DNA of 63,447 nt, the filler included, from Collodictyon triciliatum (taxonomy: Eukaryota), in assembly GCA_043381765.1 (NCBI GenBank). It is 41 parts of 41 records of this genome, joined end to end, with 100 filler letters (N's around TTAATTAATTAA, not from the genome) between each part and the next. Parts side by side here need not be neighbours in the genome. Positions count along the whole stretch, not along the records: positions 43,472 to 44,916 come from JBHJMP010011058.1; 40 more parts are not named here. One strand, given 5' to 3'. Positions 43,472-44,852 of this stretch are shown here, piece after piece. The translations under genes were made by a program, and so were the position numbers. The notes under the pieces were generated by a model. That model worked only from the letters and a program-made list of their open reading frames with translations. It searched no databases and was not told the origin of the DNA. The first letter of the stretch is position 1; each line of letters begins with the position of its first letter.

Positions 43472-44852
43472 CGCCATAGACAGTCTTGAGTATTGTGTTG
43501 GCTTTTTGGTACATGTCGACAGCCTCGTGGTATTTCTTCTGGTTCATAAGTAGGCTACCCATATTGTAGTATGTAATGGCAACACTAGGGTGGATTTCTC
43601 CGAACACCTTCAGTGTAATTTCAAGGACTTTGTTTAAGTACTCCAGTACTTTGTCATGTCTATTAAATAATATGTTAATGAAGGGATGAACATAAAAACA
43701 TAATCAAATAAAATATACTTTCCAAGGTCACTGTAAACGGCTCCAATGTTATTATATGATTCGGCAACATCAGGGTGGACTTCTCCAAACACTTTCAGTC
43801 GGATTTCCAATGATTTGTGAAAGTACTCAAGGGCTTTATCATTTCTGTTAAAAAATAAGTTAACGAAAATGATAAATATAAATATACAATAATAAAAGAT
43901 ACTTTCCAAGTTTCTTGTAAACTATCCCAATTCCCATATATGAAGTGGCAACACCAGGGTGGACTTCTCCAAACACTTTCAGCTTAATTTCCAATGATTT
44001 GTGATAGTACTCCAAAGCTTTTTCATTCCTATTAAATAACATGTTAATGAAGGGATGAACATATATACGTAGTCAAATAAAAGATACTTTCCAAGGGTAT
44101 TGTAAACCACTCCAATATTATTATATGACTCGGCAACATCAGTGTGCACTTCTCCAAACACTTTCAGTAGAATTTCCAATGATTTGTGATAGTATTCAAG
44201 AGCTTTGTCATGTCTATTAAATAATAAGTTACTGAAAGAATAAACATAAAAAATATGTAATTAATAAAATATACTTTCCGAGGTTATAGTAAACCAGCCC
44301 AATATTATTATATGACATCGCAACATGAGGGTGTATTTCTCCAAACACTTTCAGTTGAATTTCCAATGATTTGCGGTAGTATTCCAGAGCTTTGTCATTC
44401 CTGTTAGATAATAAGTTAACGAACGATAAATATAAATACATAATCGAATAAAACATACTTTCCAAGGTTCCTGTAAACATTTCCCAGAAAATTCAGATTT
44501 TTGCTGTTCGAACCTAATACAAATGAACCAAAGTTAGCAACTGTCACAAAAATCCAAATCAACTGACCAAACCCTCATCTGTCTCAACAGAAATGCGGTG
44601 CTCAAGAATCGGAATCAAAAAGGCATTCTCTTGAATTTCTTGAAAGTAATCAACCAGCGCAGAGCCAGCAGGATTCAGTTGCTGTTGTACATATCCATTA
44701 ATATAAATTCATTATTGACACATGTAATTGAGTTTTATCACCTTGGCCAACTCACGATAGATAGCTTTGTGGTCATAACCGTTCTTATTCAGCACTCTCC
44801 AACATTCATAAAACTCGAAGCGATAGTTGTCATCCAGCATACTCACAACAAC
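43472..44852 (-). CDS. 42-aa TPR array (kinesin-light-chain/NPHP3-like) preceded by a helical region; likely C-terminal part of a NACHT-TPR protein
   Basis: Four 126-nt exons (44400-44275, 44213-44088, 44028-43903, 43844-43719) and a final exon from 43659 each read like DKALEYYxKSLEIxLKVFGEvHPxVAxSYNNIGxVYxxLG. An upstream exon reads DNYRFEFYECWRVLNKNGYDHKAIY. Confidence 0.92.

Follow-up and report, generated by a model that had tools for sequence, protein, structure and literature searches.

Tandem exon and intron cassettes encoding 42-residue tetratricopeptide repeats in a candidate NLR-like gene of the protist Collodictyon triciliatum

In the present study we have analysed a window of 63,447 bases from the genome of Collodictyon triciliatum and, within it, a gene fragment in which tetratricopeptide repeats (TPRs) are encoded by a tandem array of exons of identical length. 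The window is an artificial chain of 41 contigs, each of about 1.44-1.46 kb, joined through 82 runs of exactly 44 N which are paired around the twelve-base linker TTAATTAATTAA (N44-TTAATTAATTAA-N44); adjacency inside it has no genomic meaning, and neighbours in the window are not physical neighbours. The array is located on the minus strand of a single 1,445-bp contig (43472-44916), and the gene is cut at both contig ends. The minus strand of this contig reads as eight exons, all of them open and in frame, separated by GT..AG introns (Table 1). A TTTTTAG acceptor precedes exon A (at 44852), indicating that the gene extends upstream and off the contig. The product of the fragment comprises 73 non-TPR residues followed by at least six 42-residue TPRs of the kinesin-light-chain type. 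The last exon is formed by a divergent fifth unit (43534-43659), which shares 49-59% amino acid identity with the other units and is fused, without an intron, to the next repeat. A search of the whole window against Rfam gave 0 matches.

The four consecutive exons of the array, E1 to E4, are each of exactly 126 nt and in phase 2-2, as the initial annotation of this DNA had stated and as can be read directly from the frames; each one opens with the third base of a split codon and closes with two bases of the next codon. The identical phase at both ends implies that an exon can be gained or lost without a frameshift, and the earlier proposal that the reading frame is kept when one cassette comes or goes is thus sound. 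The introns are positioned in the loop between helix A and helix B, and each exon accordingly carries helix B of one repeat together with helix A of the next. The homology that had been claimed for the array introns is also evident, with a correction to their length, which is 58-61 nt (58, 61, 59, 58 and 59 nt for I1 to I5, all GT..AG) and not 57-61 nt. The ten pairs among these five introns are 72-90% identical, compared with 48-60% against the two non-array introns of the same gene, and the observed identity was reached in none of 500 shuffles in which the splice signals were kept fixed (six pairs tested). The two intron pairs singled out earlier, I3 with I5 and I1 with I4, show 90% and 83% identity, respectively. 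Tandem Repeats Finder reports a repeat at 43578-44478 with a period of 185, 4.9 copies, 78% matches and a score of 1005, and this period, together with the intron homology, supports the tandem duplication of a unit of about 185 nt made of one exon and one intron. The exons themselves share 79-87% identity at the DNA level (87% between E2 and E4) and 73-83% at the protein level. The mosaic distribution of similarity, in which I3 resembles I5, I1 resembles I4, E2 resembles E4 and E1 resembles E2, fits a history of repeated duplication plus some exchange, as far as the alignments reveal it.

Public RNA data support both the splicing and the order of the cassettes. Ten public runs hold part of the contig and four of them were mapped (X1, X2, X3 and X6, X1 and X3 belonging to one study with two organisms, A and B); the best two, X1 and X3, contain shares of 0.21 and 0.12 of the contig's sampled words. 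Small shares also occur in freshwater metagenome and metatranscriptome runs, of which X2 and X6 were mapped, and say nothing about habitat beyond the labels of these runs. Of the seven predicted introns, five are bridged exactly by RNA contigs. A 273-nt contig from X1 extends, with 0 mismatches, from the last part of E1 through the whole of E2 into the first part of E3, and together with a separate joint between E3 and E4 it supports the order E1-E2-E3-E4. Stretches without RNA cover, such as 43668-43716, are uninformative either way. At 90% identity or more, 137 RNA contigs of X1 and 102 of X3 lie on the contig, numbers that imply the existence of many related transcripts; about a third of these RNA contigs fit two places, and up to six distinct ones lie over one position. 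No exon-skipping joint running from boundary to boundary was found among the RNA contigs, which cannot prove the absence of skipping. Joints outside the introns, with skips of 390, 372, 640, 135, 84 and 73 nt and steps going back by 284, 106 and 463, were considered as exon skipping and rejected, as they do not run edge to edge; most of them contain replaced letters, and they are best read as paralogue contigs or graph chimeras.

Some features of the RNA over the upstream exons are recorded here in their own right. One 110-nt contig of X3 runs unspliced through intron A (44654-44761) with 7 differences, and could be a retained intron, pre-mRNA, or paralogue DNA in a library guessed to be RNA. 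At 44802, in exon A, the contigs of X1 and X3 have A>G relative to the window at all depth, and at 44639, in exon B, nearly all of them have C>G; the TPR exons, by contrast, have a contig that is 100% identical. The RNA covering exons A and B may come mostly from paralogues or from another strain.

The repeats belong to a well-defined TPR class. The Pfam family TPR_12 scores above its cut-off of 30.1 in all five TPR exons (33.4-39.1 bits), and TPR_10 above 27.5 in four of the five, E3 reaching 24.0. A 42-residue period, with an 8-residue insert after helix B with respect to the 34-residue TPR, was confirmed by HMMER alignment to consensus TPR chains, where an 8-column gap stands at columns 15-22. 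A profile built on the five units matched 2,260 proteins at E <=1e-3 among 3,285 candidates, the named ones being all bacterial. Their N-terminal domains are varied (NB-ARC, NACHT, CHAT, ART, SAM, TIR, ankyrin and kinase), and the TPR repeat alone is thus no guide to what else the protein contains. Metagenome contigs gave 0 matches to a 36-letter DNA motif shared by E1-E4.

In order to locate the residues that differ between cassettes, alignment columns were assigned to the 34-residue TPR numbering by means of HMMER alignment to consensus TPRs and Pfam TPR_1 coordinates, and not by a structure model. Columns 27-41 correspond to positions 1-15, columns 1-14 to positions 17-30, columns 23-26 to positions 31-34, and columns 15-22 to the 8-residue insert. 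The variable positions listed by the initial annotation are exact (columns 15, 28, 35 and 38-39 of alignment A1). Magliery and Regan (PMC1261162) find TPR positions 2, 5, 9, 12, 13, 33 and 34, all on the concave face, to be the most variable, and positions 2, 5, 6, 9, 12 and 13 to make the ligand contacts in HOP structures. The variable residues of the array had been expected on this concave face, and they are indeed enriched there: seven of the 14 variable columns, against one of the 27 invariant ones, map to positions 2, 5, 6, 9, 12, 13, 33 or 34 (Fisher p = 0.001, range 0.001-0.004). Of the six columns with the greatest variation, five coincide with one of the seven hypervariable positions (p = 1.6e-4), and the residues differing between cassettes occupy the canonical positions 2, 5, 6, 9, 12, 13 and 33.

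Changes are distributed very unevenly over the codons. Amino acid changes never occur in 27 of the 41 codons, and 20 of the 41 are identical in all three bases. The minimum number of changes per site is 0.905 in the 14 variable codons, 0.32-0.34 in the introns and 0.26 at third positions of conserved codons. For the eight concave codons, chosen beforehand from the literature, the mean nonsynonymous rate (dN) is 1.18, and for the other 33 codons it is 0.064; the rates for comparison are a mean synonymous rate (dS) of 0.40 over the whole exon and a mean intron distance of 0.205. When neutral evolution was simulated on a star tree at the intron rate, 0 of 3000 runs attained the observed proportion of nonsynonymous differences (pN, 0.509); with the mean dS as the rate, 12 of 3000 did. 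These values, derived from four short sequences, suggest that the groove residues may have diverged faster than neutral.

It is the exons preceding the repeats that reveal the family of the gene. Exons A and B match no Pfam family. The open reading frame of exon A yielded no candidate in a word index of 5.8 billion proteins; that of exon B gave 595 pattern matches among metagenome contigs, 0 of which were upheld by tblastn, and no usable match in the ESM Atlas; the N-terminal 80 aa of the spliced model reached a best E of 0.64 against the 120 best TPR_12 proteins. A phmmer search with exon A (37 aa) in 1.84 billion representatives produced five matches. P0179, at 68% identity (E 6.7e-9), and P0181, at 54% (E 2e-5), were accepted as real; P0180, P0182 and P0183, which are internally repetitive and without TPR or NTPase families, were dropped as apparently spurious. 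P0179 and P0181 both come from the EukProt transcripts of Diphylleia rotans, a collodictyonid belonging to the CRuMs clade, and so do their cluster mates P0184 and P0185. The spliced model aligns to P0179 without gaps over 312 residues (47% identity, E 7e-102) and to P0181, also without gaps, over 175 residues (48% identity, E 1e-54), and the crossing of the exon junctions by these gapless alignments validates the gene model.

The D. rotans relatives provide an order of domains for the complete protein. In P0181/P0185 a DUF4062 domain (residues 33-118) is followed by a P-loop NTPase (259-446), a helical region, the homology to exon A (at 668) and 42-residue TPRs; the Pfam scores are 42.9 bits for DUF4062 (cut-off 24.7), 36.0 for AAA_16 (32.6) and 35.3 for AAA_22 (27), followed by TPR_12/TPR_10, and PF00931 (NB-ARC) has no match in P0181 or P0185. 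Exons A-B-C align without gaps to residues 668-760 of P0181, downstream of its NTPase, and by this comparison of sequences the region just before the TPRs corresponds by homology to the helical segment that follows the NTPase in a STAND protein. On the scale of the relative, our contig ends about 220 residues downstream of the NTPase. The recorded sequence of P0179 (511 aa) contains no NTPase; its residues 1-346 are 49% identical to residues 500-844 of P0181, so that its N-terminus corresponds to the post-NTPase helical region, and P0179 looks like a 5'-truncated transcript of the same kind as P0181.

The repeats within P0179, P0181 and P0185 have a mean identity of 45-53% and a maximum of 59%, compared with 73-83% among E1-E4. 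No one-to-one match exists between E1-E4 and particular repeats of the D. rotans relatives, and the best match of the fifth unit is the 6th repeat of P0185 (0.57 identity). From their sequences, the four cassettes thus look like a block that was amplified or homogenised in this lineage and is flanked by terminal repeats of greater age. P0181 and P0185 derive from a single Trinity gene as isoforms; they do not differ up to residue 843 and then diverge, precisely after the residue following the helix-A glycine, that is at the codon which in the window is split by the cassette introns; beyond this point P0181 has a short non-TPR tail, as from a retained intron. This coincidence hints that the position of the cassette introns may be shared with D. 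rotans. The isoforms P0181/P0185/P0184 also diverge after residue 315, inside the NTPase, and both divergences are probably retained introns.

When P0185 was searched by tblastn against the 41 contigs of the window, pieces of the missing modules were located on two further contigs (Table 1). The contig with NACHT-type P-loop NTPase exons includes a Walker-A-like G-I-G-K-S-S and a Walker-B-like hydrophobic run ending in D, and its last piece (43162-43311) is 68% identical to P0185, with exon-wise Pfam scores for AAA_16, NACHT and NPHP3_N all below cut-off. The contig with DUF4062 exons scores 18.5 bits for that family on one exon, below the cut-off of 24.7. Pieces of a DUF4062-NTPase-TPR family thus occur on three of the 41 contigs, a share suggesting that the family is large and breaks the assembly, and this one genome contains all three modules.

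Taking these data together, we propose that the contig represents the 3' part of an expressed NLR-like STAND gene with the order DUF4062 (NIR/TeTIR, a TIR-like NADase), NACHT-type NTPase, helical linker and TPR, a reading based on homology that we hold with a confidence somewhat above even. The array would grow by unequal recombination between cassettes, which the symmetric phase permits without frameshift, and the scaffold and introns would be kept alike by recent duplication and/or gene conversion, while divergence of the groove-lining residues may let every repeat contribute to ligand specificity in its own way. The superhelix formed by the TPRs may act as a sensor arm which, by analogy with STAND proteins, would hold the NTPase inactive until a ligand binds; binding would then lead to oligomerisation and to the activation of the N-terminal TIR-like NADase. 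An immune or cell-death role would be the most likely one. The initial annotation had put the gene forward as a candidate immune-like receptor; a receptor of this kind is plausible in view of its NLR-like relatives and of the exons for NTPase and DUF4062 that the genome contains, the word immune being derived from domain architecture.

Several observations weigh against this proposal. No NTPase or DUF4062 exon lies on the TPR contig, and the predicted link to these domains is drawn from homology with a single relative of full length (the P0181/P0185 cluster), the closest relative, P0179, being an N-terminally incomplete transcript; the three contigs of the family may derive from different paralogues. 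The Pfam NACHT family reaches 23.2-23.7 bits in P0181/P0185, below its cut-off of 26.7. As regards the repeats, 795 generic TPR_12 repeats have their highest entropy at the same columns as the array (rho 0.53, p = 4e-4); these are full-length repeats from 115 of the 120 best profile-match proteins, mostly bacterial or metagenomic, and were selected with the array's own profile, which inflates the agreement. An invariant scaffold with variable set positions, originally taken as a sign of an immune receptor, is thus a property of the TPR fold and does not on its own indicate such a receptor. The excess of nonsynonymous change that had been anticipated appears at the concave codons, in a weak test, and disappears over whole exons, where NG86 values of dN/dS are below 1 in all six E1-E4 pairs (0.18-0.74). 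At the largest pairwise dS (0.76), furthermore, 1203 of 3000 simulations reach the observed pN and the concave-codon excess vanishes. There are only four cassettes, their pairs are non-independent, and the short introns may be constrained; diversifying selection and a homogenisation of scaffold and introns by gene conversion are not separable as sources of the excess. In fungal NLRs highly similar repeats are defined by more than 85% identity over at least 100 aa (PMC4986451), and E1-E4 stand at 73-83%.

A first alternative is an NPHP3-like housekeeping or ciliary STAND-TPR scaffold with an identical domain architecture, whose TPRs bind fixed cellular partners, in which old repeat-specific residues are under purifying selection and scaffold and introns are homogenised by conversion. 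NPHP3, the best-known animal member of this architecture, is a ciliary protein, and to judge from a cytosolic carboxypeptidase fragment in the window the organism probably has cilia. P0181/P0185 score about 30.7 bits for NPHP3_N (P0185, 30.2; cut-off 24.8), and P0185 scores 121.2 bits for TPR_NPHP3 (cut-off 100), a family for which the single exons of the window give at most 24.1 bits, as expected for fragments. A scaffold of this kind would also account for the whole-exon dN/dS below 1, for the mosaic similarity (I3 with I5 0.90, I1 with I4 0.83, E2 with E4 0.87), which fits conversion, for terminal units that appear positionally conserved with P0185, and for dN above dS at groove codons, expected as well where neutral sites are homogenised and groove residues retained. 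A single conserved orthologue is, however, difficult to reconcile with 137 and 102 RNA contigs at 90% nucleotide identity or more, at least six of them distinct over one position, with family pieces on 3 of 41 contigs, as in a multi-copy family, and with the lack of one-to-one correspondence between E1-E4 and the D. rotans repeats, and we consider this explanation unlikely. It is even less probable, in our opinion, that the gene encodes a TPR protein without a STAND NTPase, either a short paralogue made of linker and TPRs or a protein with another N-terminal domain, acting as a generic interaction scaffold. The contig and the recorded sequence of P0179 do show no NTPase, a STAND NTPase family is present in about 30 of the best 120 TPR_12-rich proteins (counted by eye among the matches listed), and other TPR_12-rich proteins carry CHAT, ART, SAM, TIR, ankyrin or kinase domains; but P0179 begins within the post-NTPase helical region and is apparently 5'-truncated, exons A and B have no other relatives, and the acceptor at 44852 shows that the gene continues upstream. 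Finally, the cassettes could owe their order and number to a de Bruijn-graph chimera formed from paralogues, or the locus could be dead. The contig is of 1.4 kb and unplaced, exact runs of at least 18 bases common to the cassettes could mislead an assembler, and I1 (44401-44458) and I5 (43660-43718) have no RNA joint, which leaves the exon C-E1 and E4-E5 junctions without RNA support. Such an artefact or pseudogene is nevertheless very improbable in view of eight exons that are all open and in frame, an independent RNA contig that reproduces E1-E2-E3 at 0 mismatches with another confirming E3-E4, and a spliced product that is gapless to its relatives over 312 aa.

Returning to the NLR-like gene that we favour, a broader interpretation can be outlined with more reserve. 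A CRuMs-related (Diphyllatea), free-living and deep-branching protist might possess an expanded and expressed TNL-like family, TIR-like NADase-NACHT-TPR, whose sensor arm is built from symmetric one-repeat cassettes of exon plus intron that have been duplicated, exchanged and diversified in the groove, a germline cassette system for new recognition specificities independent of brown-algal NB-ARC-TPR and fungal NLRs. We regard this full picture as speculative and, as a whole, rather doubtful.

Table 1. Exons and introns of the TPR gene fragment and related pieces on other contigs of the window. RNA joints are given with the run in which they occur (number of RNA contigs in brackets where counted).
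Feature	Position	Strand	Length, phase and evidence
Exon A	44742-44852	-	111 nt, phase 0-0; part of the helical region between NTPase and TPRs
Intron A	44682-44741	-	60 nt, GT..AG; joint 44681>44742 in RNA contigs of X1 (2), X2 (1), X3 (2)
Exon B	44573-44681	-	109 nt; second pre-TPR exon; gapless to P0179 and P0181 within the spliced model
Intron B	44514-44572	-	59 nt, phase 1; joint 44510>44570 (cut +3, 59 nt skipped) in X3, X6
Exon C	44459-44513	-	55 nt; end of linker and first TPR helix A; aligned with first helix A of P0179 and P0181
Array intron I1	44401-44458	-	58 nt; no RNA joint
TPR cassette exon E1	44275-44400	-	126 nt, phase 2-2; TPR_10 36.4 bits, TPR_12 33.6 bits, both above cut-off
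Array intron I2	44214-44274	-	61 nt; joint 44213>44275 in X1 record 1, 0 mismatches
TPR cassette exon E2	44088-44213	-	126 nt, phase 2-2; TPR_12 36.1 bits
Array intron I3	44029-44087	-	59 nt; joint 44027>44087 (cut +1) in X1
TPR cassette exon E3	43903-44028	-	126 nt, phase 2-2; TPR_12 33.4 bits
Array intron I4	43845-43902	-	58 nt; joint 43844>43903 in X3
TPR cassette exon E4	43719-43844	-	126 nt, phase 2-2; TPR_12 39.1 bits, TPR_10 38.1 bits
Array intron I5	43660-43718	-	59 nt; no RNA joint
Last exon	43472-43659	-	188 nt, open at contig end; TPR_1 36.9 bits, TPR_10 36.7 bits, TPR_12 36.8 bits
NACHT-type P-loop NTPase exons	41926-43371	+	Separate contig; tblastn with P0185 residues 242-525, five pieces, joint E 1.1e-28
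DUF4062 (TIR-like) exons	15552-17005	-	Separate contig; P0185 residues 8-146, four pieces 16276-15619, joint E 1.1e-16

Other contigs of the window contain unrelated features. Two of them (6226-7677 and 35740-37185, both on the minus strand) are each filled by one intronless frame of about 480 aa with highly similar cysteine-rich repeats of about 84 aa; both match Pfam Ephrin_rec_like (E 1e-81 and 3e-85, in 10-12 stretches), with weak VSP/TNFR-like matches, and look from their sequence like a second repetitive family, possibly a surface protein. At 34189-35637 (+) a contig forms a single open frame built of tandemly repeated units about 17 residues long, in which S, T, Q, N and Y abound; its only Pfam matches are of low complexity. 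The cytosolic carboxypeptidase, a tubulin-modifying enzyme of ciliated cells, is represented by a 140-aa open frame at 62442-62864 (+), with an identity of 63% to a EukProt transcript and of about 50% to proteins of animals, chytrids and ciliates, a relationship that would fit a poorly sampled eukaryote with cilia but does not assign it a position. A RhoGEF domain (2468-3010, +, E 5.6e-25) and a PHO80-like cyclin (33302-34087, -, E 6.8e-5) are represented by fragments that look like ordinary eukaryotic genes. Many contig ends have microsatellite-like or low-complexity runs, for example at 19733-20170, 21724-22161, 38782-39400 and 54259-54660.

The cassette exon pattern is real and resembles arrangements described in brown algae and fungi. 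At the level of the repeat itself, the five-exon profile matches, among solved structures, the kinesin light chains KLC1 and KLC2 (E ~1e-17) and consensus TPR proteins (up to 1e-34), and the array exons thus share their repeat class with kinesin light chain TPRs and designed consensus TPRs. Kinesin light chains have a heptad-repeat N-terminus and no STAND NTPase, and are conserved single-function cargo adaptors.

The closest gene structure is that of Ectocarpus, whose NB-ARC-TPR genes comprise 124 TPR exons of 126 nt (42 residues) in 13 loci; site models favour positive selection in these exons, and a function in pathogen recognition as receptors was put forward for the genes (Zambounis et al. 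2012, PMC3341825). Both systems have serial frame-preserving 126-nt exons, each holding one 42-residue repeat plus linker (four of four internal exons in our case). The Ectocarpus repeats stand behind a STAND NTPase of NB-ARC type, whereas the D. rotans relatives of our gene match AAA_16, AAA_22 and NPHP3_N and, unlike the Ectocarpus proteins described there, carry an N-terminal DUF4062. The introns of Ectocarpus are reported to hold inactivated TPR exons, while the array introns studied here, of 58-61 nt, have no TPR-like sequence and no room for it. The lineages also differ, Ectocarpus being a stramenopile and the nearest named relatives of our gene being CRuMs transcripts. Literature searches on exon shuffling with TPR and NB-ARC returned brown-algal work on such a gene structure and listed, judging by title and abstract, none on it in protists; among the papers listed on Diphylleia and Collodictyon genomes (10 of 25), none mentions NLR.

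With regard to domain order, the relevant comparison is with the DUF4062 proteins. DUF4062, renamed NIR or TeTIR, is presented in three preprints as a TIR-like NADase and an effector in bacterial anti-phage systems; in eukaryotes, where it is widespread across EukProt, it forms the N-terminus of NLR-like proteins that also contain a NACHT-type NTPase and either WD40 or TPR repeats, the human examples being TEP1, NWD1/2, TTC41 and NPHP3 (bioRxiv 10.64898/2026.09.21.753143, 10.64898/2026.05.01.722283, 10.64898/2026.09.04.749371). The family as such has thus already been described in these 2026 preprints. The D. rotans relatives have the order reported there for NIR/TeTIR-NACHT-TPR proteins, namely DUF4062, NACHT-type NTPase, helical region and 42-residue TPRs, while the gene of the window, unlike those proteins, is seen only as its linker and TPR part. 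A cassette structure of one exon per repeat is not mentioned in the portions of the preprints available to us.

Fungal NLRs with 42-residue TPRs offer the third comparison. Dyrka et al. 2014 (PMC4986451) describe such TPRs behind a STAND NTPase, with polymorphic, positively selected sites on the concave face and repeat-number polymorphism, and propose concerted evolution. The array resembles these genes in having 42-residue TPRs that are unusually alike within one gene; intron-delimited cassettes find no mention in the accessible sections of that paper. Families like the one in the window make short-read or single-cell assemblies fall apart into pieces of about 1.4 kb, so that without long reads repertoires will be undercounted. 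Provided that linkage and diversification are borne out, NLR-like receptors combining a TIR-like NADase effector with an exon-cassette TPR sensor would exist in a eukaryotic supergroup that has been little studied, and the NIR/TeTIR-STAND family would gain a case where the evolution of the sensor is legible from gene structure. Were this true, C. triciliatum would represent, after brown algae and fungi, a third independent lineage in which a STAND receptor is varied through repeat modularity.

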